This document shows, in pieces, positions 9,621-35,084 of a stretch of 64,000 nt of DNA. This DNA comes from Terriglobia bacterium (GTDB lineage Bacteria > Acidobacteriota > Terriglobia > 20CM-2-55-15): NCBI GenBank assembly GCA_965198225.1, contig CBDAOY010000005.1, forward strand, positions 96,001 through 160,000. The letters run 5' to 3'. The stretch's first letter is position 1. The number at the start of each line of letters is the position of its first letter. Under the pieces are notes generated by a model. That model worked only from the letters and a program-made list of their open reading frames with translations, was not told the origin of the DNA and did no database searches. A program made the position numbers and the translations under genes.

Positions 9621-9673
9621 CTATATACGCGCTTTACGCGATCTGGCCGCGTCGGTCTTCATACCGCCCCTCC

Positions 9674-11710: not shown

Positions 11711-14552
11711 TGGTCGCTCCCCGCCCTGGTTACCGCTTGGTCGTACCACATGAGGAGCTTGGGATCTTCCCGGAGAATCTTCTCTGGGATGCGCTGAGCC
11801 ACGGCGATGATCGTGCGGTAGTCGCGATCCTGCCAGCATCGTTTGAAGCCCGCGCGGACCGCCTCCAGGCGGATGACCTTCATCTTCTTGCCCTCGGGAA
11901 TCGGTGCTGAGTTCGGCTCCAGCCCCGGGATGAAAACTTCCTGTGATTCCGGCTTCGCGCGTTTGTATTCGGCGGGCAAATACTCCGAGAACTCGCGCAT
12001 GAGGGCCAGCTCGCGCAGCTTTTCCAGGTCACTGGCCTTGTTCGGATCGGGCACGTACCAGCGGTCCTTGCCCTTGGCCTTGAGCGACGGATCGTCCTTG
12101 GCTAGGTTGCGGAGTTCCTTGAAGTTCGAGGAGAGGTAGCTGTGAATCTGGCTGGGCACCTCCCCCTTGCCGTCGTAGCGCAGGAAATTCTGCTCGAGCA
12201 GTTCATCAAGCTCAAGCATTATTTCGTTCTTTTGCCAGCCACCAAGTGTCTGCATGAATTGGGGCTTCAGGTCACCTGGCGTTTGCGGTTTCTTCGTGAG
12301 TTGTTGTTTGAGCCACTGGATAGCCGACGCCTCGTCGGAGACGAAGAGGGACAGTTGAAGAATTTCTCTTACAGTAATCCGTTTCTTGTCGTACTCGGCA
12401 GCCTGCTCGGGCAGGAAATACATACCGTCACGTGCCGGAAAGCGTTGTTCCAGGCCCGCGTAAAACTCAGCGGCGGACAAGGGGACTGTCACACCGCGCT
12501 GGACATGAAAAGCAACCATTCGGTCGAAAAGCAAAAAGTTCTGACGTTCGGCAATGACCTCTGCTTGATTGTTCTTCACCACAAATAGGGGGAGTTGTTT
12601 CAGGTGGGTCCTAACGAAATCCCAAACTCCATCTTCAACCCCGGCTGTTAGCTTGAACCGATCTTCAAGTCCGCCATTGGGCTTGTATGCAGAGATCACC
12701 AGATCTTGATCAACTGCCCCAGCCCTGTTGACGGCATTGAATGAGCGCTGTTGTTTGTCAAGAACACGAACATCTGCCACAACCAAACCGGATGCTTCGA
12801 TAGATTGCTGGATGGCACTCCAGACTGCATTCTGGCTGTTGTGGAACTCAATGGTTATCCAGTGCCCCGGCTTGAGCACCCGGTCATATCCCTTAAATGC
12901 TGAAGCCATCATGTGGGAATAGAATGGAAGATCCTTTTTGTGAACGTAATTGAGAACGCAATCATCTTCCGTGAGGCTTCTGACTCGTACCCACGCTTCA
13001 ACAAAGGAATTCAATTCTGAGTATTGAAGGGATTCTCCAAATGGTGGATCTGTGAAGATATAGTCAATTGAATTGCTGGGGATGTTTTTCAGATCGGCAA
13101 TGCTCTGCGTTGAGATAACCGTTGTTCTGCTCACGGCGCTTGTTAGCTTGCAGATCTTTCGGATTTTCCGCCGCAGGACATCGAATACGTTCCGCTCCAA
13201 GTGAAGAGACGGTGTAAACAGTGTCCCTGACACTCCTCCCCCACCGCCGAAATACCCCTGCTTCCTGGATACGTAGTTATTGATTGCGCTTAGGCAGAAG
13301 CGAAAGAGTGATGTATGCCGCAATGATGACAGCTCAAGTTGCCACAATTCACCCAAGGCAAACAAAGCCCTTGGGGTATACATGTGACAAATATGGGAGA
13401 TGCCAGTGCCATTTATAAGTTTGTTGGTTTGACGCCCGGCGAAGAACTTGTCCGTAGGAACCGACGGCCACTGACGATTGTCGAATCGCTTGTCAAGAGC
13501 CCTCCTGTCTGCCTCCGAAATCTTGAGCTTTGCGCGCTTTGAACCAGACTTAATGGTCTGCTCTAACAGCACGAATTCCGGGACACGAACAACTTCTTTA
13601 AGAACAGGATCATATCTTGTGACAAATGCTCGCTCGAGTTTAGCGGCACCTGTTGTTCGTGAAGCGCTTTTCCCGACGATTGAACCACAATCAGGACATG
13701 GAAACGATTTCTGCATTTTTCCATTCTTCAGTGCTGCTTCCCAGAAAACGAGTTCGTTGCTACAGTTTGGACAAAGGAAAACGTCAGACCAGATGGCACT
13801 CAACACTGCACCGGAGCTACTTTCATATAGCCACGACAGAGATCTCTCAATTTCATCAACGACTCGAAGAGCCTCTCTTTCGAAGTCTTCGAGGCCAAAC
13901 AAGTCAACATAGTTTCGAGCAATGAAAGTAGCAATTGGGGACAGATCCGACAGAATCGAATGGCGTTCGCCAACCATAGAAATAGCACTATTCCGCTCAT
14001 CCAGAACTGTTCCATCATCCTTCACCCGGTAACCGAGAGCCTCGATTTCTTTTGCATCTCCACACAATTGAGCAGCTACACCTGTCATTCCCGTCCCGCA
14101 GAAACCATCAAGGACCAGTCACCTGGTTGGGTATAGTGGAGGATGTACCGCATCAGGGCCTTATGCGGGACTTTGGTATGGTATGAGTGCGCGTTGTAAA
14201 TCGGGTCGTTTTTACCTTCGCTGACATCTGCCGCAAAAGTCTCGCGGCTGTAAGACCTACCTGAATCATACGGTCTGCCATAATGCTTGATAAAATCCTC
14301 AATGAACGGATTCGGGCAGGCGGTGTATAACGGCGGATCAGACAAATCCAGAATGTCCTCGTCCCTGCCGATCGGGAACCCCTCGATCTTGCGGAACTCC
14401 GGGTCCTTGAGCTTTTCGCGTAGCGTTCCCAAGAAATACTCCCGGCGCTCCTCGTCGTTCTCGAAAGTCATGCCGAGGCATTCCACTGGTCCCTGCGGCT
14501 TGGCGTCAGACTCCAGGTCGAAAAGATGTTGTTCGTGGTAGTCTTTTACCAT
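11707..14552 (-). pseudogene. pglXI: BREX type 3 DNA methyltransferase, 1-nt frameshift at ~14118
   Basis: Two ORFs rejoin as AHSYHTKVPH...PGDLVLDGFCGTGMTGVAA (motif I); FTDPPF (motif IV); follows brxC. Confidence 0.8.
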
Positions 14553-14561
14553 CGGCCGTTC

Positions 14562-17500
14562 CTATTCCAAAACAATGCGCACCTTGCCAGGCTCCTTGCC
14601 CTTGGTGAGTTCGTCCAGATATTCCTCGAACCGCTTCTTCATCTCGACGGCTGTTACCGGTGAGCCACCGGAGAGCAGCGCCGCTCGTATGTCTTCGATC
14701 TTGACCGGCACCTTCTGGAGTCCGGAAAGTACCTCGCTCAGAGCATGGATGAAGTCCTGGTCGATCTCGTCCGGCAGGGCTCGCTTCTTGATAAAGCCGT
14801 TCACTAGCTTCTTGGGCTCGGGCTTGAGCAGGTCCAGGTTGCCCTTGATGGTTGGGTCCTCCAGGTTGGCCAGAAGTGTCAGGGCCCAGTTGGCCGCCAG
14901 CTTATCCAGTTCGTCGTCCAAACCATCCAGGACCGTTCCCGCAGGAGCGGTGGGCGGTTCTGCGCTGGGCTTGTAACTACAGTTCGCGCAGACGGGTGAG
15001 GCGTCCATCTCTTGTTCTGTGAGTGCGAAGCAACTCTTCAGGGCGGCAAGGCGGTTTTGGAAGTCGGTCAGATGCTGACGCGGCATCAACTCGATGGTGG
15101 AGAGCTTCTGCAGCACTTTGAGCCGTTCGTCGCCCATGAGACCGGTCTTGCGCTTGTCTTCGTTCACGCCCAGCCGAGCCTTGGTGTGCAGCCCGAGGTA
15201 GGTCTGTACATAGGTTTTTTTGAGCTGGTTCAGTCTGTGTTGGGTCTGCTGACGGAAGGTGCCAGCGTCGCGCTTGTCCGGGTCGCTGATTTGAACGAGG
15301 ACCTCATCGCGAACGATCTTCATGTTGCCTACCCACTGGTGTTCCGCGGGCAGCACCGCTTCAGCGGTGGAAAGGAAGGACGCGGTGGAACCGAGATCGG
15401 CCACCAGTTCCTCAAGTGATTTGATCTCGGCCAAAGAATTGAACCCTGCCCGATGGGACGTCACCTCCTGGGCGTCATAGCGGAAGTTCTTGAGTTTCCC
15501 TGGCGTGGTATAGGCTTGGAGCGATTCCAAGAAATTCTTGGTGTCGTCGAGCCGCGTCCGGAGTTTCTGCGCCTCTTCCTCGGCCAGCAAGTTCCGGCCC
15601 CAGAAGAGAAGACCGCTCTGCAGGTTCTGTTGCAGCAGCACCAGCTTCTCCACTGATTCGGAAATGGCCTTCTGCAACTGCTGAACCGGTTCCTCCTTGC
15701 CCTGGGTGACCAGTTGGGCCATACCCGGCGTGAGACCGAGCAGTTCGAACAGAGCTTTGAGTGCCGGAAGGTTCCAGTCCTTGGGCTGTTCGATGTGCTT
15801 GAACTGCGTGAGTTGATCTACTCCGGTCCCGGCCAACTGCGGCAGGTCGGCGGCGTCGAACTTCTTGCCCGGGATGGCGAGAACCAGATCGCCGGAGTAG
15901 ACCAGCACAGCCAGGAGGACCGCGACCCATTCCGGTTCCAACCGCTGCCGGTCCTTGTCCATGTATTCCACGCCTTTGTCATCCTGGATCAGCTCGGAAC
16001 GATTAACTACCTGGCCGTGGCCCTTCTTTTTGAGCAGGCCGAGGATGTGTTTGGCGTATTTTGATTTGCTTGGATCAAGGCGTCCGCCATCGAGCAGCTC
16101 CAGGCCATCAAGCACTGCCGTCGCCTGCTTGGTACGGTTCTGACCCGCGACGGCCCGCAAGGCATCCTGCGCGGCCTGGTCCCGGTTGATTCCTGTGATG
16201 AGGACCGAGAAGAAGGGATGCTCGGGCGCCTGATCCTGAAAATGCGCTCCCAAGCAGACGCCAGAAATCGTGTTCACGAGGTCGCGGAAATTGATGCGCT
16301 CATGGGAACCGATGCCGGAAAGTTCCCGGATTGACTTTCCCTTGGCCCATTCGGTGAGCGACTTGCTGCGTCCCTGATAGGTGACATCGAAAGCATCTGT
16401 CATGTTTTTTTGCAGCCACTGCACCAGGTCCCGCAGAAAATGGGATGACTTGGACTCGTATGTAGACTTGGCGTGCCCCGATGAAGTGGAAGCCAGGTCT
16501 AGCGCTGCGGCGTAATTCCTAAGCGCAGTGCGGAATTCGTCGTCCATCTTGGTGAGCCGCAGCAACAGTTCGTCGGAGTTCTTCTCCTTGGGGAAGTGCG
16601 GGGCATCGAAAGGCTGGATGAAATACAGGTAAAAGTCCCGTGGCGGTACGGCAGTGGATCTTTCATTGGGGGCGCCGAAGAAAAGATATCCCTGGCGTGC
16701 GGCTTTGCGCTCCAGCCACTCCAGCTCATGCTGCCAAATCTTGTAGCCAGTGACATAGGTCTGGTCCGTACACTCCATGACCCGTTTCAGGGCCTCGTAG
16801 TAGTAACGGTCGAGTTGAGGGGAATCGAGGCTTTCAGCGCGCTTGTCGATCAGCGCGTCGAAGTCGTCGGTCTTCTTCAGGTCCAGATAAAATTGCCGGT
16901 TGTCCGGATTCGAGGAAATGAATTGCCCGCTGACCGTCTTGAGGATTTCACGCAGGACAGTCTCCACCTGGGAAAGCAGGTCGTCGGCTGGATTCCCGCC
17001 CAGGTCCTCGATACCGGGTTGATACAGGCAGAGCCCGTCCCGAAGCTCTTCGGCTGTCGCTCCCAGGGTGGCGTGAATGTCCCCGGTGGTGAGCCGGTGC
17101 ACCGACAGAGCACAGATGAGCCGCAGCGCCATTGGCTTGTAAGCAGGGCGTGTGAAGGCCTGTTGGATGCGGGATTCCAGCACCTGGCTGCAGTCGATTA
17201 CCGCCTTAATATCGGGCACGGCTCGGAAGGACGGATTCTCCCGAAGATTGGTCCAATAGGTGTCGTATGCTATGAGGCCGGGCCGGTCATCCGGCATGTC
17301 CTGATTGAGCATCTTCTTCATGGCCAGGGACAGGGTCTTAAGCACTTCGCGCTTCTCCACGGCGATGACCCTCTCGAAGGTGTCGATGTAGTCGGGATGC
17401 ACCGGGAAAAGGTGGACAAACTCGTCCATGCGCTCGTTCATGTGGCCGTAGAATTTGCCGAAGGGCACAAGGTATTCGCGTATCTTGACCTGCTGCTCGC

Positions 17501-18290
17501 CGGTCTTCTTGAGCAATCGCTCGGCCACGACGAACTTAACGTCCTCGTGGGCGATGCGAATTTGCTCGAAGCGATCCTTGACCCGGCGGATGCTGTCGGC
17601 TACGAAGGAAAATCTGGGACTGTCGAAGATGGCCTCCTGGACACCGGCCATGAAGCGGAAGCGTAGGTCCTTGCAAACCTCGCCGATTTCACGGAGAAAG
17701 TTCAGGTCGAGGATGAGTTCCTGATCCTTGCGTGAGCGCAAGTAATCGAGCAGCTCGTCAACCACGAGGAGCAGGCCGTGGTCGGGGAACTCCTGATGAA
17801 ACGTGGCCATCATTTCTTCAAAGGATCTCTTGTTGTTGGATACCTGATCGGTGGAGGGAAAGCTGTAGCTCACGCTTATCGCGCCCAAATGCTCTTCCAG
17901 CTCCGCTACCAAAATGTCGCGAAGGGACATAGTGGTGGCCCCTATTTCAGTACGGACGACCTTGAACCGACCGCTGATTTGTCCGACAGCATTCTTCACA
18001 GTGGCGTTGCTTAGACTTGCGGCAAGGTCGGGATTCTCCGCAAGCCCGGAAATCACCGACATGAGGTGGGATTTACCGGTACCGTAATTTCCGACTACCA
18101 GAAGCCCTTTGTTGTCGGTGGGCTGCTCGAACTGCAATTGGGGAATAACCAGATCCACCAACTTGTCCGCCATCTCCTCGGAAATGACGTAGGTCTCGAC
18201 AAGCCGTCGGGCCGCAGTCGCCTCGTCGGCATCCCGCAGTTGGACCACAGACTCGATGGGTTCAAACTGAATCAGGTCACCGTATTTCAT
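14562..18290 (-). CDS. brxC: BREX type 3 ATPase (DUF6079)
   Basis: [18 protein letters not shown]; [11 protein letters not shown]; [11 protein letters not shown]; 1242 aa. Confidence 0.85.
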
Positions 18291-18324
18291 TGCGTCCGCT
18301 CCCTCGCAATGGAAACTGTTGTCT

Positions 18325-18801
18325 TCATGTCGTTACGTCTGGGGTTGCTGTCAGAAAATCACGTGCTGGATATCGCCTGTACTCTGGATGAGCCGGTATA
18401 GCATAGATCAAGGAGTCTTCAACAATAGTGCCATTCCATGCGGCAACCACGGTCTTGTTGCGCGAAAGTCCCTGGAGCAGCCGTAGCGGGTCCTGTTTCA
18501 AACCGACATCGAACAAGATTTCGATGTTGTCGAGTAATACGATCTCGCATTCGCTCTTGCTTACGAGATCCCGAAGAACACGCGGCAGCTGCAAGGCCCG
18601 CTGGCGCTCGGTCAAGTCCAGCATTCGGCACGATAGCTCGAGATTGACATTCACCAGCGGCGCACCTGTGCGGTCCCGGACATCCTGAAGCGCAGCGGTC
18701 TTACCTTCCCCTGCCGGTGCGATGACCAACATCAGCCGGTTATAAAGCTCGGCGGCCAGCTTGACCTTTCGCATGATCTGATCAGCCAGGGGCTCCGCCA
18801 T
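18325..18801 (-). CDS. brxF: BREX-3 P-loop protein
   Basis: [38 protein letters not shown]. Confidence 0.85.
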
Positions 18802-18998
18802 CACTGTTCTCCTTTATCCTTGGCCTCGTCAGCTCCGCCTGACTTCACCCATTCGTCCACCGCTTCCTTGCGGAATTTCCACAGGCGGCCCATCCGGTGT
18901 GCCGCATCTGCTTTTCGGTGATCCACTTGTAAACGCCGTCACGCTTGATGCTGCGATAAGCAGCATTTTCTTCTACGGCGACGCCATCGACCATTCAC
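18801..18998 (-). pseudogene. Excisionase-like HTH protein, frameshifted
   Basis: Reconstructs to ...AAY..IKRDGVYKWITEKQMPAHRMGRLWKFRKEAVDEWVKSGGA; stop overlaps brxF start (TGATG). Confidence 0.7.
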
Positions 18999-19585
18999 AA
19001 GTTAACAGCAGTCGCCTCGGTTCCCGTCTTGAAACCAGCCATGCTGTTTATTGGCGGACTAGTTCGTACAGGACGTGCTTGACGGGCATTCGTCCGGACA
19101 AACCAGAAAACTGGCTTACATTATATGAAAGTCGATCGAAGAGCCATCGAGGGGTCTCAGTGGGTCCCATTATTGCGTATTCCGGGGCGGCCTTGATCAC
19201 TGATTCCGGGATTGTGATCAGCGATTCCGATTGCCGAGGAGATGGCAGAAGCTCATGGCTCTTGCGGCATTTTTCTCCTACGAAATTACCTGCCGGCTCG
19301 GCAAGCGTGGCATCGGGGAGTGTATCAGGCAACCGATGCGAAGTTGGCGTCAGCTTGCCATCAAGGCCCTCCCCGAAGAATTGCCACTCACGAAGAACGG
19401 CTGGAATTGTGTGACAGATCTCGACGCGAGGTTCAAATAGGTCGCGAGAAACTCTGACTCAACGCTTGTGGAAATCGACACGACAGTCCTAAAAAAAGTG
19501 GTAGCTTACTGCTTCCTCTCGACATAATTGCGGCCTGAGAATAGAGCGTATACCACGAGTGGGTCCCGTGAGGTGAGCCACAGAA

Positions 19586-22570
19586 GTGGAGGTACAAGAC
19601 CGCGTGAGCTTGACGCATCCGATCCACAGACGATACATGGCAGAAGATCTGGTTCGTCTGCGCCGCTCGGACGATAAGCGACGCTACATCGCCTCACAGC
19701 GCGCCGGGCGCGTTGACCCGAACCCGCATCAGATTGAAGCAGTCATCTTCGCGTTGTCCCGCCTTCCCGACGGAGGGTGCATTCTGGCGGACGAGGTTGG
19801 CCTTGGAAAGACCATCGAGGCTGGCCTGCTGATTGCACAAATCCTTGCGGAGGGGGCGCGCCGTGTCCTGCTTGTGACACCGAAACCGCTGCTTGGTCAG
19901 TGGCAACAAGAGCTCTATTCTTTGTTCAACATCGACACGCGAGAGGGCGGCACAGCTCCTGGTGCCCTTGAGGGCAAGGGTGTGTTTCTCGTCGGTCGCG
20001 AGTTTGCAGGAAGCGAGCGAGGAGAACTCAGTCTAAAAAACGCGCAACGCTTCGATCTCTGCGTCGTGGACGAAGCCCACGAGGTTTTCGCTGGGATCTA
20101 TAAGCGGTTCGATCGCTGGGGCCAGTACGTTCACGATTCGCCACATGCTGTCATGGCGGGACGCTTCCGCGCCTTTCTCGTCGGTAGTGGGACGCCGGTC
20201 CTGCTTCTAACGGCCACCCCCATCCAGAACTCGCTCGTTGAACTCTGGGGTCTCGTTCAGTACGTGGATTCGACCGGCACCCTTCTCGGTGACCTCGGGA
20301 CTTTTCGCGACATCTTTTGCGACGGGGATGATCGATTGTTAGCCCCGGGCCAAGAGCACGAGCTGCGTCAGCGTATGAGTAGCGTTGTCCAGCGCACACT
20401 GCGCCGTCAAGCCCAAGACTTTATGGAACGTCCCTTTGTTGGCCGATATGCGCAGCTTTTCGAATATTCAATGAGCCCCGAGGAGAAGCAGCTCTACGAT
20501 GATGTGACCAGTTATCTCCTTGAACCTGGTATTTGCGCTTTTCGAGGCAACCAGCGGCGGTTGCTCCTCATCGGTTTCCACCGCCGTATGGCTTCATCGA
20601 AACGAGCGCTCTCGGCAAGCCTTGAAAAAGTCGCCGATCGTCTCGGTCGCATGCTTAGTGACGGTGGCGTGCCGAACAACACCGATGATGTGGTCGTCTT
20701 TCAAGAAGATCTTGAGGATGACGAGCTCGACTTCACGGACTCCGATGAAGGGGCAGCGCCGAACCAAGAGAGTGTTCGCTCCGAGTTAGAGCGCGTAGAG
20801 TCCTTCATTGCCCGTGCGAAAGCGCTCTCGACGGACAGCAAAGCGCGCGCTCTCATCCAAGCGGTCGATCTTGTCCTCCGGCGAGCGGAAGAGGGAAAAG
20901 GGAGTGGCAAGGTCGTGATCTTCACCGAGTCACTCACCACACAGGACTACCTGAGAGACCTTTTGATTGAGAGCACCTTGCTGAACGGCGAGGAGATAAC
21001 ACTCTTTCGTGGGACAAATAACTCGCCGCGCGCGGTCCAAGCGCTGGCCCGTTGGGAAGAAGAAGTCGGCGGGAAAATACCGGCTTACAATAAACCCAGC
21101 CGTGACGTTGCCATTCGGCTAGCACTCGTTCATGAGTTCGCGACACGCTCTCGTGCATTCATATCGACCGAGGCTGGCGCAAAGGGATTGAACCTTCAAT
21201 TCTGCTCGACCCTCATCAACTATGATCTTCCCTGGAACCCGCAGCGGATCGAGCAGCGCATCGGACGCTGCCATCGGTACGGCCAGGAGCAGGACGTGAC
21301 GGTTATCAACTTTCTCGCAAAGGACAACGAGGCACAACGCCTGACGTTCGAGATCCTGAGCCAGAAGCTCGATCTTTTCGGTACCGTCCTGGGCGCGAGT
21401 GACGAGGTACTTCACCGCCCTCACACGGATACACCTGAGATGTTGGTGAGTGCTCTTGGTTCGGACTTTGAGACGCGCCTCCGCCGCATCTATGAGCGTG
21501 CGAGGACGTTCGACGATATTGAAGCCGAGCTCCGACAACTCCGCGACAGCCTTGAGAACCGGCGCAAGGTGTTCGAGGAAGCCTATCGCCGTTCGGCCCA
21601 CCTCATACAGAGTCACTTGGATGAATCGGTGCAACAGGTCTTCCGCCGAATTCAAGAGGAACTGCCGAAGGAACTCGCGGAGTTCGATCGAGATCTGGAG
21701 CAAGTGCTACTGAGCTATCTTGACTCGATTGGTATTGCCTACAGGCGTGATCCTGGCGATGGTTATACGGATCTCCGAATCGCTGCTTCTGGTGAGCTTC
21801 CAGACGGTCTTCAGGAAGGCGTGACCGTCACCATCGGGTACAGGGAGAAGCCTAAGGACGCCGACCCAATCCACCTCGGTCACCCACTGATCAAGGCAGC
21901 GCTTAAGGAAGCACAGGAGGCGACCGAGAAGCTCTTTCACATAAGGGTTCGGACGCCAGAGGATGATGAAGAACTGCGAAGATTTCGAGGACACGCCGGT
22001 CGTCTTGTTCTTGCGAAGGTTTGCTACGACGGATTTGAACCCACCGAAAGGATGCTTCCGACGTTGGTGTTACGCGGTGCGCTCGAACCACTAGCACTTG
22101 GAATGGCAGCGCGCCTTCTCGAGTGTCCTATAGATGACCTCCCACCATTGACCGATTCGTGCAGTGTACCGGACGAAGTGATGGAGGACGCTTTCGATCA
22201 GCTCATCTTCGCAACCACCGACGACGTAACTCGAAAAGAGGAGCAGCGATTCGAAGGCGCGTTGACTCAACTCGAACGCTTCGTGGAAGACCGTTTGCTG
22301 TTGCTCCACCGCCAACGAGAAGCGGTCGCTAGCAAGCTTTCCTCCGCCCAGTTAGGGCTCGCGCAGGCTGTCGGATCTGAGCAGCGCACTAAGGTTGAGA
22401 GGCAGATTCATAAGCTCGGCGCTAGGTCGGAAGAACTCGAATCCAAGATTGGTTTGCTCGAAACCCGGGACGATGAAATCTACCAGCAGTTCCGTGAGCA
22501 AACACACAAGCGCCGCTACGCGTCACCACGAGTAGAGCGCTTGCTCGAGGCGGAACTGAGCATCGAATGA
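19586..22570 (+). CDS. SNF2-family helicase/translocase
   Basis: PHQ, LADEVGLGKT, DEAH, LLTATP, GLNLQ, YDLPWNPQRIEQRIGRCHRYGQ; C-terminal coiled coil. Confidence 0.9.
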   Translation: MEVQDRVSLTHPIHRRYMAEDLVRLRRSDDKRRYIASQRAGRVDPNPHQIEAVIFALSRLPDGGCILADEVGLGKTIEAGLLIAQILAEGARRVLLVTPKPLLGQWQQELYSLFNIDTREGGTAPGALEGKGVFLVGREFAGSERGELSLKNAQRFDLCVVDEAHEVFAGIYKRFDRWGQYVHDSPHAVMAGRFRAFLVGSGTPVLLLTATPIQNSLVELWGLVQYVDSTGTLLGDLGTFRDIFCDGDDRLLAPGQEHELRQRMSSVVQRTLRRQAQDFMERPFVGRYAQLFEYSMSPEEKQLYDDVTSYLLEPGICAFRGNQRRLLLIGFHRRMASSKRALSASLEKVADRLGRMLSDGGVPNNTDDVVVFQEDLEDDELDFTDSDEGAAPNQESVRSELERVESFIARAKALSTDSKARALIQAVDLVLRRAEEGKGSGKVVIFTESLTTQDYLRDLLIESTLLNGEEITLFRGTNNSPRAVQALARWEEEVGGKIPAYNKPSRDVAIRLALVHEFATRSRAFISTEAGAKGLNLQFCSTLINYDLPWNPQRIEQRIGRCHRYGQEQDVTVINFLAKDNEAQRLTFEILSQKLDLFGTVLGASDEVLHRPHTDTPEMLVSALGSDFETRLRRIYERARTFDDIEAELRQLRDSLENRRKVFEEAYRRSAHLIQSHLDESVQQVFRRIQEELPKELAEFDRDLEQVLLSYLDSIGIAYRRDPGDGYTDLRIAASGELPDGLQEGVTVTIGYREKPKDADPIHLGHPLIKAALKEAQEATEKLFHIRVRTPEDDEELRRFRGHAGRLVLAKVCYDGFEPTERMLPTLVLRGALEPLALGMAARLLECPIDDLPPLTDSCSVPDEVMEDAFDQLIFATTDDVTRKEEQRFEGALTQLERFVEDRLLLLHRQREAVASKLSSAQLGLAQAVGSEQRTKVERQIHKLGARSEELESKIGLLETRDDEIYQQFREQTHKRRYASPRVERLLEAELSIE

Positions 22571-23721
22571 CCAGGCCGGAGGACAACGACGACGTGGCCC
22601 TGAAGCTCGTACACACTGCAGATTGGCACCTCGGTCGCCGCTTTCCGAGTTTCGACGAGGCCGACCAAATCAAACTAAGCCGTGCACGACTCGACGTCAT
22701 CGACCGGATCCTCGGTGTCGCCGAGCGAACAATCGCCGATGCTGTCCTGTGTGCAGGCGATCTCTTCGACGAACCCGACCCGGGTCCCGAATGGTGGGAG
22801 CCCCTTGTTCAGAAACTGGCCAAACAGAACCCCTTGCGCCCTATCTTTCTGCTTCCCGGCAATCATGATCCGCTTGTTGCTGCGTCGGTCTACCATCGCG
22901 ACCATCCCTTCCGCCGTGCTCTCCCGAATTGGGTACACGTAGTGGACGACGACAATTTCGAGTACGAGCTCTCGCCGGATGCCGTACTATACGCCGCGCC
23001 CTGCCGCTCCCAGGCCGGTCAGAAAGATCTCGCTCTGTCCCTTCCCTCGCGCGAGGATGGTGACGGGCGGATCCGGATCGGCCTTGTCCACGGCAGCACC
23101 TTCGACATTGAAGGCTGCCAGATGAACTTCCCCATCGCGAGGGATGCAGCAGTCCGACGCAGTCTGGACTATCTCGCGATTGGGGATACTCACAGCTTTC
23201 GTGAGGTGCCGCCCGCAGTAAAGCCGCCGACAGTCTATCCTAGCGCTCCGGAGCCCACATCCTTTGGCGAACAGGACGCTGGGTATGTTGCTAGCGTGTT
23301 CATTACGCGGCGGCGCATCGCGATAGTGAAACAGGAGCGGGTGGCGTATTGGACTTGGAAGCAATCCACGTGTCGGAGTCTTTCCCAGCTACGTGGCCTT
23401 CGTGACGGGACCGATCTAAGCCGCAGCGTCCTCCGACTCAGAATCGAAATGAGTCTCTCTGCCGACGAATATGAGGAAGTGGAAGGAATCCTGCGCAAGC
23501 TGAAGGGGACTGACGCCTCGCATGGCCGAGTAGGGGTGCTTCAGCTCGACCGAAGCAAGATGGAACTTGATACCGATAACATCGAGAATGTCTTTGAGGA
23601 TGTTCCGGATGTCCTGCGCGTGGCGGTTAGACGGCTCAAGCAAATGGAAAAGGGCGCCCAAGGCGAGATCGCGAAGCAGGCGCTCATGCACATTTACCGG
23701 ACCATCCAGGATGCAGGGTAG
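22567..23721 (+). CDS. Mre11/SbcD-like metallophosphoesterase nuclease
   Basis: HTADWHLG, AGDLFD, PGNHD, VHGS, IGDTHS; ATGA overlap with SNF2. Confidence 0.9.
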   Translation: MTRPEDNDDVALKLVHTADWHLGRRFPSFDEADQIKLSRARLDVIDRILGVAERTIADAVLCAGDLFDEPDPGPEWWEPLVQKLAKQNPLRPIFLLPGNHDPLVAASVYHRDHPFRRALPNWVHVVDDDNFEYELSPDAVLYAAPCRSQAGQKDLALSLPSREDGDGRIRIGLVHGSTFDIEGCQMNFPIARDAAVRRSLDYLAIGDTHSFREVPPAVKPPTVYPSAPEPTSFGEQDAGYVASVFITRRRIAIVKQERVAYWTWKQSTCRSLSQLRGLRDGTDLSRSVLRLRIEMSLSADEYEEVEGILRKLKGTDASHGRVGVLQLDRSKMELDTDNIENVFEDVPDVLRVAVRRLKQMEKGAQGEIAKQALMHIYRTIQDAG

Positions 23722-23723
23722 TT

Positions 23724-26700
23724 ATGAGGCTCGTCAAAGTCACCATCCGGGCGTTCCAATGTATTGAGCAGGCTGAAATCGTGTTCGGTCCCGGTCTGAA
23801 CGTGCTCTACGGACCGAACGATCTTGGGAAGTCTAGCCTGGCGTCGGCGGTACGCGCCGTCCTGCTACTGCCACATGGATCGAGCGCCTATGAGAGTCTT
23901 CTATCCTGGCACTCGGGTGTTTCTCCCTGTGTCACGCTAACCTTCTCCACCGACCAGCAGCGGTTCTGGCGTGTCCGCAAGTGCTTTGGCTCAGGCCGCT
24001 CCGGCTCGTCAGCACTTGAGTTCTCGAAAGATGGCAACTCGTTTTCAGTGGACTCGACTGGCAGGCAGGTAGACGAAAAGCTTCGTGAGTTGCTCCGCTG
24101 GGGCATCCGGAAGCCCGGAGGGCTCGGCGGAAGTAGGGGCTTCCCAGACAGTTTCCTGGTGAACGTTCTATTGGCTGAGCAAGCGGACGTGCCCAGTATT
24201 CTCGGGCGAGACATCGCGCAAGATCCGGACGAGTCTGGTCGCGAGTTCCTAAACGAGGCCCTCCAAGCTTTGGCACAGGATCCGTTGTTTAAGCGCGTCC
24301 TTGACGAGGCGCAAGGCCATGTCATCCGCGCGTTTACATCGACAGGCAAGAAGAGCAGGCGTCAAGGCTCGCCATTCCAGAAAGGTGCCGAGGAGATTCG
24401 CGCGCTGGGCAGACAGCAGGATTTGCTGCAGGCGAAGCTCAACGCGACCGTTAGTGCGGAGCAACACCTACGTACTCTTGGTGCTGAGTTGGACACTCTG
24501 ATTGAAGATCTCGCCGGCGCCAAAGACAAGCTCGCCCAGGTCCAGGAATCCCACAGGCGCTGGCTGGCTCGCGCTAACGTGGAAGCGGAACTGGGTGCTG
24601 CTCGACCAGTGGTCGAAGAAATTAGGAAGGAGCTCGCCGAGGTACAGAAGCTCAGCAAACACATCGAAACCCTGGAGGTAGAACTCAAACATGGCGAGGT
24701 CGCTCTTAGCGAAAGTGTTGACCGGGAGAAGCAGGCAAGCGTCGCACGGGATGAAACAAAGGATCGCTTCCGAGCGGCAACCAGCGAGAAAGAGGCCCAG
24801 GCCCGCGAGCTCAAGAGGCACCAGCTCGAGAACGAACGACACAAGAAAAGGGACGAACGTGCCGGGATCCAGGCGGATGTGAAGGCCGCCGAGCAAGCCC
24901 AGCAGTTGGGTAAAGATGCGCGGGAAGCTCGCGAGAAGCTCAATAGCCTCCAAGAAGAACTCGCACACGCCGAAGAGAATGTTACATCACTTGCCGAGGT
25001 TTCAAAGGCCGCGATGGCCCAGGTCGACCAGCTTAGGCACGTCGAAGCATACGGCCGTCTCGTAGATGCGAGAAGAATCCTTGCCGAGGCTGAAACCGCA
25101 GAAGCATCAGCCAAAGCAGATCGAGCCGCTGCCGCCGAGCAACGAGCTGAGGCGGAAGCATTCGAAAAACAGGCAGCCGGTCTGGAGATACCCGACCACC
25201 AGGTTGTCGAGACGCTGCGTTCGCTGCGACAGCAGCTCGAGGTGGCGGAAGCACGCCTGGGTGGGGGGCTCACGGTCCATGTTCGACGCCAAGAGGACAT
25301 TGCACTGAAGGCGTCCGTTGACGGTGAACTACCTAATGAGTCTCAAGGTCGAGATCCATTCGATTTGGAGGGGCAGCGCTCCATCGATCTCCACGTGGAG
25401 AATCTCCTCGACATAACGATCACAGCTGGGGCGGCGGCGGCGCGAAAGCAGACGGAGGACCTTCGCCGACAATGGTCAGAGGAAGGTGAGCCGAGCTTGG
25501 AGCGTGCTGGTGTTGCCGACGTGGCAGCTCTGGAGGAAGCCTGGAGGAGGAAGGACGATCTGGTCCGCCGTGCTGCCGCCCGAAGAGCGGAAGCTCAGAG
25601 GCTCGAACAGAGGGCGAAGGAACTCCACGAACGGGTCCAAGGGATCGACTTAAAGAAACTACACGTCACGGAACGCGAACAGGCTCTACTAGGTCAGGAC
25701 GAAAATCAGCTCGCCTCTCTCTTTGAGGACTTTGGCGAATCATGGGAGGTAGAGTTGGAGCAGCAGCGCTCATCAGCCGAAAGAGAAAGAAAAGATTGCG
25801 CCGCTGAGCTTGAGAACGGAAGTTCCCGATGTACGGAGCTACGAACACGCCTCTTGGAACGCGAGGAGAACTACCAGCGCTCCAAGACGCAAGCAGACGC
25901 GGCCACCGGAGCTTTCTCGGACGAAGTACACAATGTGTTGGAGAGTGGACGCGGTCAGCTGGGTGAGATTGACCGTGTCATCTCCGGTCTCGCGGCACAG
26001 ATCGACAGTCTTTCGAAAGTAGCCGAGAGCCAGCAGGACGATGCGCGCCAGGCGCTGCACGCTGCGGAGTCCAAGCTAAAGGACGCGGCCAATAACCGCG
26101 AGAGTGTAGAAGCTATGCGCCGCCAGAAAGCTGAGCAACTCGCGAAGGCCACAGGAACGCTTGAGGGTTTGCAGAAGCAGATCGAGAAGCTCGATCTTGC
26201 AGCCGCAGAGAAAAAGGTCGTGGATATCGAAGGTAGGCTCGCGCAGATGCCAATGCCCGAGAGTCCAGCTACAGAGGCAGATGTTGATGAGACTCAGAAT
26301 GTAGTTGAGTTTGCAACACGTGCCGTCGAAGAGAAGCAGAGAGAGATCCATATGGCACAAGGCGGGCTCGAACAGGTTGGCGGAGGCGTCATCCGGGAAC
26401 AGAAGGAGGAGATCGATCGTGCTCTTGAAGTCGCTGTCGAACGCGAGCACGAAGTGGAAGTTGAGTACGAAGCATGGCAGTTGTTGGCCGAGACCCTTCG
26501 CGACGTCGAAAACAGCGATGGTGCGCACCTCGGCGAGGCACTTTCTGGACTACTAACGCAGCGGTTCAAGGAACTCACAACGGGCCGCTACGGAAAGCTT
26601 GCGATAGGTCCTAATCTTGAGACTGAGGGACTCGATGCTGCGGGCAAGATCCGCCACTTCGATGCTCTTTCGGTTGGGACCAAAGATCAGTTGGCGACCC

Positions 26701-26966
26701 TCTTCAGACTCTGTATAGCAGAACAGATCCAGAGCACAGTCATTCTTGATGATCACCTTAGCCAGAGCGACCCCAACAAGATCGAGTGGTTTCGAGCCCT
26801 GCTGCGCCGAACTGGTCAGAGTATCCAGGTCATTCTTCTAACGTGCCGCTCAGGCGACTACCTTCTTGACGAAGAGATCCCCGACAAGGACGAAATCGTC
26901 CGTGACAGAGCCGGCGGTCTCCTCCGGGCGGTCGATCTCGCCCGGGCTATCCGTCGTTACCCTTAG
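23724..26966 (+). CDS. Rad50/SbcC-like (YhaN-type) SMC ATPase
   Basis: Walker A GPNDLGKS, ~750-aa coiled coil, signature LSVGT, Walker B ILDD. Confidence 0.9.
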   Translation: MRLVKVTIRAFQCIEQAEIVFGPGLNVLYGPNDLGKSSLASAVRAVLLLPHGSSAYESLLSWHSGVSPCVTLTFSTDQQRFWRVRKCFGSGRSGSSALEFSKDGNSFSVDSTGRQVDEKLRELLRWGIRKPGGLGGSRGFPDSFLVNVLLAEQADVPSILGRDIAQDPDESGREFLNEALQALAQDPLFKRVLDEAQGHVIRAFTSTGKKSRRQGSPFQKGAEEIRALGRQQDLLQAKLNATVSAEQHLRTLGAELDTLIEDLAGAKDKLAQVQESHRRWLARANVEAELGAARPVVEEIRKELAEVQKLSKHIETLEVELKHGEVALSESVDREKQASVARDETKDRFRAATSEKEAQARELKRHQLENERHKKRDERAGIQADVKAAEQAQQLGKDAREAREKLNSLQEELAHAEENVTSLAEVSKAAMAQVDQLRHVEAYGRLVDARRILAEAETAEASAKADRAAAAEQRAEAEAFEKQAAGLEIPDHQVVETLRSLRQQLEVAEARLGGGLTVHVRRQEDIALKASVDGELPNESQGRDPFDLEGQRSIDLHVENLLDITITAGAAAARKQTEDLRRQWSEEGEPSLERAGVADVAALEEAWRRKDDLVRRAAARRAEAQRLEQRAKELHERVQGIDLKKLHVTEREQALLGQDENQLASLFEDFGESWEVELEQQRSSAERERKDCAAELENGSSRCTELRTRLLEREENYQRSKTQADAATGAFSDEVHNVLESGRGQLGEIDRVISGLAAQIDSLSKVAESQQDDARQALHAAESKLKDAANNRESVEAMRRQKAEQLAKATGTLEGLQKQIEKLDLAAAEKKVVDIEGRLAQMPMPESPATEADVDETQNVVEFATRAVEEKQREIHMAQGGLEQVGGGVIREQKEEIDRALEVAVEREHEVEVEYEAWQLLAETLRDVENSDGAHLGEALSGLLTQRFKELTTGRYGKLAIGPNLETEGLDAAGKIRHFDALSVGTKDQLATLFRLCIAEQIQSTVILDDHLSQSDPNKIEWFRALLRRTGQSIQVILLTCRSGDYLLDEEIPDKDEIVRDRAGGLLRAVDLARAIRRYP

Positions 26967-27185
26967 GTTCATTGAGCCAAAGAACGTAGAAGCAAGGGTA
27001 ATAGCCGCTCCCGGGAGGGCTATAGATCGAGAACGGCCCCTGTTATTCGCGCGAACTGAAAGACAACCCGTGCGCGGGCGGCATGGAGCCCAGGGTTGGG
27101 CGAGCTAGATGGGGAAACGGTATTGTGCGGCGAAGACTACCGCCGAGTGGTGCCCTTGTGTTCCCCTTCCAAGGTTCTCTAAGTC

Positions 27186-27230
27186 AATCAGCCCTGAAGG
27201 AATCGAACCTTCGACCTACTGATCAAGAGC
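27186..27230 (-). repeat. tRNA 3'-half fragment (probably Lys-CTT), att-like scar 1
   Basis: Minus strand ctcttgatcagtaggtcgaagGTTCGATTCcttcagggctga covers anticodon loop, T-arm and acceptor 3' strand. Confidence 0.7.
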
Positions 27231-27302
27231 CTTTCGCCAGAGCGGCATTTCCCGTAACCTTCCCCCCCTCCCCCAGTATTACTTCCATATGGAGGGATCC
27301 CC

Positions 27303-28018
27303 ATGCAACCACTCACCCAGGACCTCAAATACGCCACCCTCACCCGAACCCCGGCCTTCACGCTTTCGGTCATCCTCGTCCTCGCCCTCGGCATCGGCGC
27401 CACCACGGCCATCTTCTCCCTGGTCGACGCGACGTTGCTGCGCCCCTTGCCCTATGCCGAGGCCGACCGGTTGATGATGATCTGGGAGGAGGCGTCCGCG
27501 ATCGGGTTTCTGCGGAACACGCCGGCGCCGGCGAACTATTTCGACCGGAAGGCCGACTTCCGGGCGTTTGAGGACATGGCGGCCACCAACAACGAGCCCC
27601 GGAACCTGACGGGGGACGGGGAGCCGCTGGCCCTGGACGGGATCCGCGCGACGGCCAACCTCAGTGGCCGGCGACGGGGGTATCGCGGGTAGCGTTCCGC
27701 CTCAACCCGAAGGGCCGATGGGGATTGCCGTCGAGTCCTTGTCGCCGGTCGGTCCTGATGAACGCTGGCTCCCGCCCCACTGCCCGATCTTGCCGGGCAA
27801 TCCCCATCGGCGATGCTCGCGATACTCCCGTTGCCGGTCACTTACCGCGGTGCTCGGGATCGAACCTCTGCTGGGCCGTTTCTTTACCGACGACGAAGAT
27901 CAGCCCAGCGGGCCGCGGGTCGCCGTCATCAGTCATGGGCTGCGGCAGCGGCGGTTCGGTGGGGATCCGGCCGTCATCGGGCGCGATATCCGTCTGGGAT
28001 GATGCGCCCCACACCGTC
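27303..28018 (+). pseudogene. ADOP/MacB-like permease, 5' part only
   Basis: Near-identical to the start of 35708-38134; interrupted at 27664 and truncated at ~28018. Confidence 0.85.
27664..27841. mobile_element. 178-bp MITE-like hairpin element
   Basis: Absent from the intact paralog; ~30-bp imperfect terminal IRs, internal perfect 16-bp IR, flanked by TCA/TTA. Confidence 0.75.
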
Positions 28019-30770: not shown

Positions 30771-30813
30771 TCAATGAGCCCGGAAGGAATCGAACCTTCA
30801 ACCTATTTAGATT
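30771..30813 (-). repeat. tRNA 3' fragment, att-like scar 2
   Basis: tcaatgagcccggaaggaatcgaaccttcaaccta is a close direct repeat of 27184-27218. Confidence 0.65.
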
Positions 30814-32380: not shown

Positions 32381-33553
32381 TTAGCGACCAGGAGTTTCCG
32401 GTTCATCTTGTTCGTCAATCGCAAGTCGATCAAAAAGATCTAGATAAGGCTGATACCGGAAGCGCCGATTCCGCTGGCCCCCTGTTGTTTCACGCAGGAT
32501 CCCTAGGGCTTCCATCTGACCGATGATTCGGTTTGCCGTGACATAAGAGCATTCAAGCCGGGTCGCTGCTACGGGCACATAAATGATCGGCTGCATGAAG
32601 AGCAAGTCTAGCAGCCGAAGACCCATTGGTGACCGCCGTTCCATGGTCTCAGCGACTATCGCGCGATGGTTGTCCCTCAGTTTGAGAATGGCCTGAGCTG
32701 TTTCTGTCGCCGATTGGCTGACCTCGAACACTCCCTTCAAGAAAAACTTCAACCATCCCTCCCAGTTCCCGTCCAGGCGAATTGCCATGAGGCGATCGTA
32801 GTATTCGGCGCGATGTGCCCTCAGATAGAGACTCAGATACAGCAGGGGCCTCCTCAGAATCTCTTTCTGGCACAGGAGAAAGGTAATGAGCAAACGGCCG
32901 ACTCGCCCGTTACCGTCCAGGAACGGATGTATCGTTTCAAACTGTGCGTGAGCAATTCCGCAATGTACGAGGTCCGGAAGATCGGCGTCCGTATGCAAGA
33001 ACTTCTCGAAGTTGTCGAGCGCTGTGTGCATTTCTGGGACTGGAGGCGGAACGTAGGTGGCATTTGCGGGAGTGGATCCGGCCGCGCCAATCCAGTTTTG
33101 GCTAGTTCTGAACTCTCCCGGAGTCCGATTGGCGCCCCGGACGTTGTGTAGAAGGTGGGCGTGTATCTCACGTATCAGCCGGAGCGAAAGAGGTAGTTCC
33201 TCCAAGCGCTCAAGGCCGTAGTTCAGAGCTTCGACATAATTTACGACTTCCTCGACGTCTTTGACCCGTTCCTTGCCGGCCTTCACTTCGAATTGGAGAA
33301 CGTCCTCTAGTGTGCTTTCAGTACCTTCGATTTGTGAACTTAGGACCGCTTCGTGCCGTACGTACATGGCAACGAATAAATCTGGATTCGGCAAGACCGT
33401 AGCCATCCCATCCAGACGGCCGAGGGCGCGATCCGCCCTTGACAGAAGTTGTACGAGCGCATCGTCCATATTGACCGGTGGATGGAATGGAAGGGAGGTC
33501 GGGATGAATGCGGCAAAGTTCGCAGGTTGTTTTATAAATTCCCCAGAACGCAT
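32381..33553 (-). CDS. Fic family protein (Fic_N, Fic, C-terminal HTH)
   Basis: EAVLSSQIEG; HPFLDGNGRVGR. Confidence 0.92.
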   Translation of the reverse strand: MRSGEFIKQPANFAAFIPTSLPFHPPVNMDDALVQLLSRADRALGRLDGMATVLPNPDLFVAMYVRHEAVLSSQIEGTESTLEDVLQFEVKAGKERVKDVEEVVNYVEALNYGLERLEELPLSLRLIREIHAHLLHNVRGANRTPGEFRTSQNWIGAAGSTPANATYVPPPVPEMHTALDNFEKFLHTDADLPDLVHCGIAHAQFETIHPFLDGNGRVGRLLITFLLCQKEILRRPLLYLSLYLRAHRAEYYDRLMAIRLDGNWEGWLKFFLKGVFEVSQSATETAQAILKLRDNHRAIVAETMERRSPMGLRLLDLLFMQPIIYVPVAATRLECSYVTANRIIGQMEALGILRETTGGQRNRRFRYQPYLDLFDRLAIDEQDEPETPGR

Positions 33554-33879
33554 AATTACTGGTCTTTTGAATTCGGCTTATTTTGCGGTTTGAGAATAAA
33601 GGGCCAAAATAGGAATTTTTATTTCACAAAACAACTATAACGTAAAATAACGGCGGGCGTTACTGATTAAATGACCCTCCCTTTGCCTCCAAGCTTCCCG
33701 CTGTCGTACGGAAGCGCTCATGTCCTTGCGGGGTGGTATTCGGTATCGTGCCGGCCCTGTCTGTCGAGACCGTTCGACCGAGGTGTTCGTCGAGTGTCGC
33801 AAACCCCCAGACCGCTTATTGAAGGGTTTTTGGTGAGTTTCGAACGGCACGGGCCGGGAGTGGTGAAAGGGCTCTGCCC

Positions 33880-35037
33880 TTACCTCTCGAGCGGAAAGTC
33901 CCGGCTTGGGTCAAGAGAGCGCACAAACTCTCCGGCGGGAAGGATCCAGACCCGGCCTCTGCGCTCGCGTCGTGTTCCCCGGTAAAGCAGAACGAGGTCG
34001 GCTTGCGGGTAGTCGGCCCCGAACGCTTCGAGCCCGCGAAGGTCCGCGGGGCGGATTCGGGACGCGTTCTTCACTTCGACAGCCCAGAACGCAGTGCTAC
34101 CGTAGACGACGAAATCCACCTCGACGCCAGACCGGGTCCGCCAGAAAAACAATTTCGCGTCGGCTTGCCGGTAGGCGAGCCACGCGCGCAGATGCTGTGC
34201 GACCAACCCTTCCAGCGCCGCCCCCTCGATCTCTTCGGGTCGATCGAGCGGCCCTTTCGGCCGGAGGGAACGAAAGACGCCGCTGTCGAAAAGAAAAAAC
34301 TTTGGATGCCGAATCGTTTCGCGCTTCGCGCGGCGTGCGAAGACCGGCACGCGAAACGACAGGAGCAGATCCTCCAGTACTTCCACGTAGGCCGCGACCG
34401 TCTTGCGTTCAACCTCGCACTCGCGAGCCACATTCGCGACGTTCAGGACCGCCGCGTGCGAGAAGCTGACCGCTTCAAGAAAACGCGCAAAGCCGCCAAC
34501 GTTCCGAGCCCATCCCTCCAGCCGGACCTCCTCGTCGATATACAGAGAGGCATACGCACGCAGCACATCGGCCGGGCTCTCTGCTGCAACGACAAGGGGC
34601 AGCAGTCCGGAGGTCAGGGCAGCGTCGAAGTCGAAGTGTTCGAATTCCGCCGCCATAAACGGATGGAGTGTGCGGACGAGGGCCCGCCCGGCCAGGAGGT
34701 TCACGCCGCCCCTCCTGAGCTTTCGGGCGCTGGAACCGGTGAGAACGAAGCGGCGCTTATCCGGAGACTCGATCAGGGCGTGCACGACGTTGAGCAACTC
34801 GGGCACCCGCTGGACTTCATCGATGACAACGGTGGAGTCTTGGGGCGCCCCTCGGATCCACTCGCGCAGACGCTCCGGCCTGGCCATCAACTCACGCGCC
34901 ACGTCTGGCTCCAGAAGATCAATTACGAGCGCTTCCGGCAGGATGTGGTGCAGCCAGGTCGATTTGCCTGTGCCACGGGGGCCCAGCAGGAAGAAGCTTT
35001 GTGAGGGCGGCTCAAAAAACCGACGCTGTAATTCCAT
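33880..35037 (-). CDS. AAA_14 ATPase with DUF4143 (PD-D/ExK-like C-terminus)
   Basis: GPRGTGKS, IDEVQR, LTGSS, FWRTRSGVEVDFV...EVK. Confidence 0.88.
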   Translation of the reverse strand: MELQRRFFEPPSQSFFLLGPRGTGKSTWLHHILPEALVIDLLEPDVARELMARPERLREWIRGAPQDSTVVIDEVQRVPELLNVVHALIESPDKRRFVLTGSSARKLRRGGVNLLAGRALVRTLHPFMAAEFEHFDFDAALTSGLLPLVVAAESPADVLRAYASLYIDEEVRLEGWARNVGGFARFLEAVSFSHAAVLNVANVARECEVERKTVAAYVEVLEDLLLSFRVPVFARRAKRETIRHPKFFLFDSGVFRSLRPKGPLDRPEEIEGAALEGLVAQHLRAWLAYRQADAKLFFWRTRSGVEVDFVVYGSTAFWAVEVKNASRIRPADLRGLEAFGADYPQADLVLLYRGTRRERRGRVWILPAGEFVRSLDPSRDFPLER

Positions 35038-35084
35038 TTTGAGTCTCAAAAAGGAAGTAATATATCCGGAATTATAGCACGACC

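Follow-up and report, generated by a model that had tools for sequence, protein, structure and literature searches.

A mobile SNF2, nuclease and SMC-like ATPase cassette beside a BREX remnant: a candidate undescribed defence system

What might an intact set of three DNA-processing genes be doing beside the remains of a bacteriophage exclusion (BREX) locus? We put this question to a stretch of 64,000 nucleotides from a Terriglobia bacterium of the phylum Acidobacteriota (assembly GCA_965198225.1, contig CBDAOY010000005.1, positions 96,001 to 160,000; "the window" below, with positions counted from its first letter). Here genes for a putative SNF2-family translocase, an Mre11/SbcD-type nuclease and an ATPase resembling Rad50 and other structural maintenance of chromosomes (SMC) proteins follow one another on one strand. 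An earlier note, made from the letters alone, had read this trio as a candidate undescribed defence system, with a nuclease that senses DNA ends and a translocase that works on double-stranded DNA (dsDNA). We find that the trio is a discrete, co-conserved three-gene unit and an accessory, horizontally mobile, self-contained cassette. A new SMC/nuclease/translocase system against foreign DNA is, in our judgement, its most likely identity, at about even odds, the case for defence being built on context and analogy.

A discrete three-gene unit

The picture of three intact, tightly coupled genes stands up to closer inspection. None of the three translations contains an internal stop; the SNF2/nuclease junction reads gaATGAcc, a 4-nt overlap in which the nuclease start lies over the SNF2 stop, and the nuclease/ATPase junction (TAGttATG) leaves a gap of 2 nt. 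Overlaps of 4 nt are seen again at gene junctions of orthologous loci. The sequence GAGGTG lies a few bases 5' of the GTG start of the SNF2 gene; a simple scan of positions 18700-27400 returned no sigma-70-like promoter, and inspection upstream of the SNF2 gene, by eye only, brought no SOS-box-like motif to our notice.

The same order is found wherever the proteins are close relatives of those in the window. Among species-representative genomes, all 16 loci with a nuclease of at least 50% identity have this gene flanked on its own strand by both partners, the SNF2 gene immediately upstream and the SMC-like gene immediately downstream. Approached from the other end, among 400 sampled genomes of the phylum, all six assessable genomes with a close SNF2 (51-55% identity) continue with the nuclease and then the SMC gene, one further close match being a contig-end fragment that lies outside these six. 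Remoter relatives do not share the arrangement: it is absent from 64 nuclease loci (~30% identity or N-terminal matches only), including three from Corynebacterium with only a weak helicase-C match upstream, and 16 remoter SNF2s (30-40% identity, one of them from genome G185) have no nuclease within flanks of 1.5 kb. Outside the trio, 17 related loci and the window have no gene cluster of their flanks in common, so that there is no fourth component. The trio is thus a discrete, co-conserved unit of three genes, the SNF2 gene included, as the proposal of a three-part system implies.

Two apparent nuclease-SMC fusions were rejected along the way: the one at locus L007 is an over-extended SMC frame, the nuclease ending at its own TGA, and the 1,338-aa protein P0127 has an Arg/Pro-rich, out-of-frame-looking joint indicative of a frameshifted gene call.

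Relatives of the nuclease form 2489 clusters at E <= 1e-5 among 8000 candidates, the best 120 all being at least 58% identical. In a set of 1.84 billion representatives (at 50% identity) there are 113 nuclease matches at E <= 1e-30; about 30 are full-length representatives with at least 41% identity (~270 bits or more), and the next full-length relatives reach ~140 bits at most. Counting over 120 clusters of at least 58% identity and these ~30 full-length representatives, the family is big enough for study.

Nor does the trio appear to have a name. It is unnamed in the PADLOC v2 and NCBIfam models, and the literature that we searched by full text holds no system combining an SNF2 protein with an Mre11/SbcD-like and an SMC/Rad50-like partner, although supplementary candidate lists might contain one; the accessible part of PMC10853773 holds nothing relevant on the trio. 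On these sources the earlier note was right not to recognise a named system.

The three proteins and a predicted assembly

All of 17 orthologues keep the SNF2 motifs GLGKT (residues 72-76), DEAH (162-165) and QRxGRxHR (557-564) unchanged. In an AlphaFold2 (AF2) model with a predicted local distance difference test score (pLDDT) of 77.8 and a predicted template modelling score (pTM) of 0.77, the core spans residues ~44-600 and is followed by a confidently modelled C-terminal module consisting of a long helix (642-715), an alpha/beta domain (719-860, plus a strand at 982-993) and a helical hairpin of ~95 residues (863-959). E. coli RapA is both the best PDB sequence match and the best full-length structural match in Foldseek (8t0l_F, TMq 0.51, E 1.8e-23), with a similarity that extends beyond the SNF2 core; the two proteins are, however, only 17% identical, and the trio SNF2, whose core begins at ~44, has no evident N-terminal Tudor-type domains. 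RapA, a partner of RNA polymerase, is not known to be encoded together with a nuclease. ZorD is also among the structural matches.

Amongst sequence profiles, the DrmD models from DISARM match best and cover the core as well as the C-terminal region, albeit at scores below those required of an equivalog: 427 bits for the partial DrmD match in PADLOC v2, 430.7 bits against NCBIfam DrmD_b (NF038318, cut-off 950) and 231.7 against NF038317 (cut-off 610). The BrxH model PDLC02500 gives 206 bits, and HmaA, at 146 bits, falls far under the DrmD match. Judged by these profiles and by the predicted fold, the protein is a RapA/DrmD-like dsDNA translocase.

In the nuclease, all five phosphoesterase motifs are present and the metal-site residues (D19/H21, G64-D65, G98-N99-H100-D101, H175 and G206-D207/H209) are invariant. 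Its PDB sequence matches are confined to N-terminal domains of Mre11/SbcD (T. maritima Mre11, SbcD; E ~1e-12), and it scores 58.4 bits against the NCBIfam SbcD model TIGR00619, below the cut-off of 77.65.

The third protein combines a Walker A motif (GPNDLGKS), a signature motif (LSVGTKDQ) and a Walker B motif (ILDD). The alignment shows no variation in Walker A, in the Q-loop Gln or in the signature LSVGTxxQ; Walker B reads LDD (D1009-D1010) in 10/10 orthologues, and the H-loop position reads TC(R/H). The 10-sequence alignment contains no CxxC zinc hook; where the hook would be, a model of the apex (residues 455-675, pLDDT 86.9) has paired helical arms and a small five-stranded beta domain (~516-567). 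This apex finds no PDB match in Foldseek at E <= 0.001 (the best is at 0.21), and a wide structural search (VIA) returned only generic helical hairpins (Z <= 10.2), with JetC and the SMC hinge within noise. Profile matches include 19.3 bits against Pfam AAA_27 (cut-off 22), weak Rad50/SMC matches in NCBIfam and, in PADLOC v2, generic heads together with the coiled coils of LmuB (41.7 bits) and JetC (14.4 bits).

How, then, should the nuclease-ATPase pair be classified? With E. coli SbcCD and Mre11-Rad50 it shares the five phosphoesterase motifs, an ABC head with long coiled coils, and the order of nuclease before ATPase. The Walker B motif of SbcCD/Mre11-Rad50 reads hhhhD-E with a catalytic Glu, however, whereas the trio ATPase has D-D and lacks the hook; its nuclease stays under the SbcD cut-off, and the SbcC model TIGR00618 matches nothing in the genome. 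The earlier statement that all catalytic motifs are present accordingly holds for the SNF2 protein and the nuclease but not for the ATPase, for which "Rad50/SbcC" is an imprecise label: it is of SMC type, yet hook-less and closer in kind to YhaN/SbcE.

SbcE (YhaN) of B. subtilis is described in the accessible part of PMC2811018 as SbcC-like "with a unique central domain". Together with SbcF (YhaO) it resembles the trio pair in joining an Mre11-type phosphoesterase to a long SMC-like ATPase with a special central domain rather than a zinc hook, and both that central domain and an hhDD Walker B occur in the trio ATPase. There are differences too: the nucleases are only ~27-30% identical, the trio ATPase stays below the curated AAA_27 score, and SbcEF is a two-gene system without SNF2 whereas the trio always has one, predicted to bind the nuclease. 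Because of the hook-less apex, the unique central domain of SbcE and a LSxGT..Q/hhDD/TC pattern common to the trio ATPase and the genome's own YhaN-type protein, we assign the pair, on sequence features, to a distant SbcE/SbcF-type branch and not to canonical SbcCD.

The YhaN-type protein just mentioned belongs to a Metallophos plus AAA_27 (YhaO/YhaN-type) pair some 40 kb from the trio on the minus strand (window genome G000, contig C5:75106-78656; L005:5106-8656). It lies beside a WYL/WCX/HTH regulator, scores 69.7 bits against AAA_27 and may serve its genome as a resident repair pair of the SbcEF kind. The trio is, at any rate, not the only SbcCD-like pair in its genome, a possibility that would have weakened the original proposal.

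Does the SNF2 protein physically join this pair? Complex models of the nuclease with SNF2 residues 640-994, built from orthologue alignments, gave interaction prediction scores from aligned errors (ipSAE) of 0.73, 0.75 and 0.75; the best of three controls scored 0.00. Of solved complexes 58/80 reach the mark used here, and of mismatched pairs 2/110, a calibration that is only rough as we used alignments of our own. The runs share at least 80% of their contacts (partner pLDDT 73) and predict an interface between SNF2 residues 864-905 and 959-981 and, on the nuclease, helix 35-56 and residues 243-261; it includes the invariant SNF2 residues H974, R977 and P981. We know of no solved SNF2-Mre11 complex, so that a score derived from a memorised structure seems unlikely. 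The models support, rather than demonstrate, docking of the SNF2 C-terminal module on the nuclease.

Set against known defence systems, each component has familiar relatives but keeps different company. SNF2 helicases of defence systems are listed in PMC11232893 (accessible part), and IetH, a DrmD-like SNF2 essential in IetHAS (PMC13069673, accessible part), offers a parallel in being an add-on to another defence module. Yet the partners of the trio SNF2 are a nuclease and an SMC-like ATPase, unlike those of DrmD, IetH, BrxHII, ZorD or HmaA. There is no DrmA, DrmB (DUF1998), DrmC or methylase alongside the trio, as DISARM class 1 would have, and in contrast to Hma, where HmaA goes with the HmaB methylase and the HmaC ATPase, the cassette contains no methylase. 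Lamassu (LmuB) and Wadjet (JetC) likewise couple an SMC/Rad50-like DNA sensor to a nuclease effector, and their coiled-coil profiles are the ones that weakly match; but the trio lacks LmuA and LmuC on the one hand and JetA, JetB and JetD on the other, its effector is an active-looking Mre11-type nuclease, and it adds a third protein, the SNF2 motor.

Mobility of the cassette and its surroundings in the window

Several lines of evidence bear out the patchy distribution and horizontal transfer that had been anticipated. The nuclease is found in 1/33 other genomes of the order and 0/3 congeners, and the trio in 7/401 genomes of the phylum sample, the window's own genome counted. Its GC content (0.578 vs 0.604 for the genome) lies at the 3.9th percentile of 7.4-kb windows, and of 200 random windows only 0.5% match its tetranucleotide distance of 0.231. 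In a FastTree phylogeny of 17 SNF2 orthologues, the window sequence groups with Myxococcota/"delta" sequences (support 0.94) instead of its own phylum. A gammaproteobacterial and a Vicinamibacterales sequence, both from records titled chromosomes, form one sister pair and a Verrucomicrobiota and a Bryobacteraceae sequence another (support 1.00 each), keeping in mind that the sequences come mostly from metagenome-assembled genomes and that some cross-phylum pairs might reflect mis-binning.

The most direct view of gain or loss comes from the genus g148. The genes that flank the trio are ~120 bp apart in a non-carrier (G414) and 7.8 kb apart in a carrier (G365), homology being lost where the upstream gene ends and ~50 bp past the SMC stop. 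The cassette lies between ordinary chromosomal genes, with no integrase. A second non-carrier (G382) has a different, 1.2-kb insert at the same site (L200:318-1273) with two overlapping small open reading frames (ORFs), the first with a weak nucleotidyltransferase match (E 0.003), the second without a PDB sequence match and HEPN-like by eye only; this could be an MNT-HEPN toxin-antitoxin pair, suggesting a cargo hotspot. In the window's own genome, DNA comparison with three congeners revealed neither synteny nor a trio match from which the borders of the island could be mapped.

The immediate surroundings (Table 1) agree with the first description, which had the trio back-to-back with BREX type 3, amid decayed neighbours and ending close to a tRNA attachment scar. 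BrxF, BrxC and PglXI do lie upstream and divergent, and decay is evident in the split PglXI and the insertion sequence (IS) behind it, although BrxF and BrxC are still intact. BrxH, PglZ and BrxA are missing from the cluster; as tblastn finds no PglZ or BrxA anywhere in the genome, this BREX locus is a dead remnant. The tRNA scar is genuine insofar as blastn against the genome's own tRNAs places a tRNA-Lys fragment 223 bp downstream of the trio, with a second copy of 35 nt near 30771-30805, neither being called by ARAGORN or Rfam. Judging from its orientation and the usual geometry of tRNA integration, however, what the fragment bounds is more probably an element on its right-hand side than the trio.

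Table 1. Features of the trio locus and its neighbours in the window
Feature	Position	Strand	Remarks
SNF2-family ATPase/translocase (putative), RapA/DrmD-like	19586-22570	+	994 aa, GTG start; Pfam SNF2-rel_dom and Helicase_C
Mre11/SbcD-type metallophosphoesterase nuclease (predicted)	22567-23721	+	384 aa; Pfam Metallophos, E 6e-13
SMC/Rad50-like ABC ATPase of the YhaN/SbcE type	23724-26966	+	1080 aa; Pfam SMC_N/AAA_15/AAA_23 at N-terminus
Divergent brxF-SNF2 intergenic region	18805-19585	.	short repeats and a 171-aa ORF
BREX type 3 remnant	11707-18804	-	divergent from trio
BrxF	18325-18804	-	intact
BrxC/DUF6079	14562-18290	-	intact, 1882 bits
PglXI, split (155 + 793 aa)	14085-14552 and 11707-14088	-	
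IS21-type element	8691-11527	+	at truncated end of BREX cluster; IstA 8691-10775, IstB 10772-11527
tRNA-Lys(CTT) 3' fragment	27190-27229	-	positions 32-71 of the genome's tRNA-Lys(CTT), 38/40 bases, E 3.5e-14

The 171-aa ORF between brxF and the SNF2 gene (18899-19414) has no family match and no counterpart at other trio loci. Repeats of ~36-60 bp in the same region (~19170-19405) turn up dozens of times in two congeners, frequently as tandem pairs, and look like a family of the repetitive extragenic palindrome (REP) or miniature inverted-repeat transposable element (MITE) kind. Past the first tRNA fragment come ORFs that by eye resemble pieces of a MacB-type permease, without matching any Pfam family, and further downstream a DDE transposase, a Fic protein and an AAA_14/DUF4143 ATPase. 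The latter two, which may be further island cargo, occupy 32381-35531 on the minus strand (Fic_N plus Fic, 390 aa; ATPase, 389 aa), downstream of the IS4-type transposase. At 5305-8196, a 963-aa ORF joins Metal_hydrol (PF10118) to a class I/II aminotransferase; it represents an uncommon fusion or else an ORF called too long.

Defence, repair or service to a mobile element

If the trio does act against foreign DNA, its three proteins would form one machine. By analogy with Mre11-Rad50, nuclease and ATPase would make up a complex in which the hook-less SMC/Rad50-like ATPase gates the Mre11-type nuclease, with the SNF2 translocase attached to the nuclease through its C-terminal alpha/beta-plus-hairpin module. 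Its most likely targets would be foreign DNA on entry, for instance the ends of phage or plasmid DNA, or replication intermediates: the ATPase would recognise or clamp the DNA, the SNF2 motor would then pull it or strip proteins bound to its end, and the nuclease would degrade it. Spelled out in full, this would be an undescribed, mobile, three-protein immune system in which an SNF2 docked on an Mre11-type nuclease, under the control of a slow-cycling SbcE-like ATPase without a hook, carries out remodeller-assisted resection of phage or plasmid DNA as a bacterial counterpart of end resection by Mre11-Rad50-Nbs1 (MRN), and whose genes preferentially settle beside BREX type 3. We place this detailed version somewhat short of an even chance.

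The operon coupling, the conserved gene order, the mobility, the predicted docking of SNF2 on the nuclease and the lack of a match to a named system all favour the idea of a DNA-end-sensing defence nuclease with a dsDNA translocase; the defence context is only partial. Defence-type neighbours occur at five or more of the 21 loci with usable flanks (the flanks of L192-L196 fell outside the PADLOC scan), and BREX type 3 is among them twice. The second BREX case is a genome of another genus (G102; L197/L191), where the trio is followed, after a gap of 72 bp, by co-directional BrxF, BrxC, PglXI, BrxH, PglZ and BrxA. There the trio is intact and BrxC, PglXI and BrxH have each been broken into several ORFs, the BrxH fragments scoring 423 and 861 bits on PDLC02500. 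The excess of genomes with both DUF6079 and the trio (three in the phylum sample, with ~0.2 expected under independence) adds to the defence context. At L010 and L018, a PDC-S37/Hhe/Mokosh-like protein (1536 or 1719 aa) lies directly upstream of the trio.

Some observations made in passing concern these defence genes themselves. The PglXI gene of G102 is interrupted by a 412-aa ORF without a PADLOC match, and an SNF2-type gene elsewhere in the window's genome (G000, contig C9:6013-7602) is ~29-31% identical to the BrxH of G102 and unrelated to the trio. DUF6079 matches are fragmentary in G102, G139, G181, G223, G229 and G263, and across the phylum many genomes give the impression of an eroded BREX type 3. 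Just past the trio of a Bryobacteraceae locus, on the other strand (L020, 13151-19763), a split HmaA/BrxH/DrmD-like SNF2 (602 + 327 aa) and a 1101-aa HmaB/PglXI-like methyltransferase look like an Hma- or BREX-like system.

A number of observations weigh against defence. Defence neighbours are recognisable at only 5/21 loci; other flanks carry Lon, dehydrogenases, transporters and kinases, and one locus (L009) has Ku and a LigD-sized ORF on the opposite strand, at a distance of 2-6 kb. For the enrichment near defence genes that the earlier note proposed to check, a PADLOC scan of the 102 flank ORFs taken together is a poor test, since it yields family tallies only and is dominated by kinase-type models. 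The nuclease has no match in PADLOC v2. No close copies were found on PLSDB plasmids (the listed matches are at most 28.8% identical, all 67 records under 60%) or on IMG/VR viral contigs (best 25%). Three carriers in genus g148 share syntenic flanks around the trio, and the trio proteins are 50-62% identical across phyla.

Several of these observations fit the strongest competitor, namely that the trio is a mobile SbcE/SbcF-like repair or recombination module whose SNF2 clears RNA polymerase, Ku or adducts from broken or blocked ends and so helps its host after damage. SbcE and SbcF act in the repair of double-strand breaks and in competence, according to the accessible part of PMC2811018; the YhaN-type motifs that link the trio ATPase to the YhaO/YhaN-like pair of its genome point the same way, as does RapA, a housekeeping enzyme, being the best structural match of the SNF2 protein. 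Many housekeeping flanks, the stable g148 synteny and the high sequence conservation are likewise what one would expect of a repair module, and Ku and the LigD-sized ORF in L009 would be suitable neighbours. However, Ku/LigD lie near the trio in only 1/23 related loci searched, and a YhaO/YhaN-type pair is already present in the genome. The trio is very rare and patchy, it comes and goes like a cassette at a location where a relative carries different cargo, and it adjoins BREX type 3 twice and other defence-type genes three more times. We consider the repair scenario rather unlikely, though a serious contender to the immune system proposed above.

A third scenario, which we regard as improbable, has the trio serving mobile elements by processing transferred DNA, competing with rival plasmids or elements, or stabilising islands. 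At L010 the trio sits between the helicase-nuclease giant and relaxase/RecD-like and coupling-protein-like genes, the set of 102 flank ORFs includes two integrases, and the window locus lies amid IS elements and tRNA-fragment scars. Yet most loci have no mobility genes within 10 kb, and both the integrase-free chromosomal setting of the g148 cassette and the lack of close copies on PLSDB plasmids argue against such a role.

Least probable of all, if by a small distance, is an auxiliary or back-up to BREX type 3, for example a nuclease activity that BREX lacks, which would work only together with BREX: the trio does adjoin brxF in two genomes, divergently in the window and in tandem in G102, and in the phylum sample it meets DUF6079 more often than expected (DUF6079 in 12/401 genomes, both in three against ~0.2 under independence, a statistic weakened by relatedness, with adjacent clusters in 2/3), but BrxF/BrxC matches are absent from 22/23 related loci searched and present only at L191, BREX is eroded and the trio intact in both adjacent cases, the trio SNF2 is no part of the brxF-brxC-pglXI-brxHII-pglZ-brxA cluster, which in G102 has a BrxH of its own, and the main text of a survey of BREX diversity (PMC12839542) mentions no Mre11, SbcC, SbcD, calcineurin or metallophosphoesterase.

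Were the trio to prove a defence system, it would be a third SMC-based immunity architecture beside Wadjet and Lamassu, with a catalytically intact Mre11-type nuclease and a dedicated dsDNA motor. Were it to act in repair, it would provide the first case in bacteria of an SNF2 remodeller coupled directly to a nuclease of the Mre11-Rad50 (MR) type, a partnership so far known from eukaryotic end resection. To our knowledge, no role has been established for the DrmD-like helicase in DISARM. On either reading, the trio offers a specific predicted SNF2-nuclease interface and gives both DrmD-like helicases and the poorly understood YhaN/SbcE branch a context linked to function.

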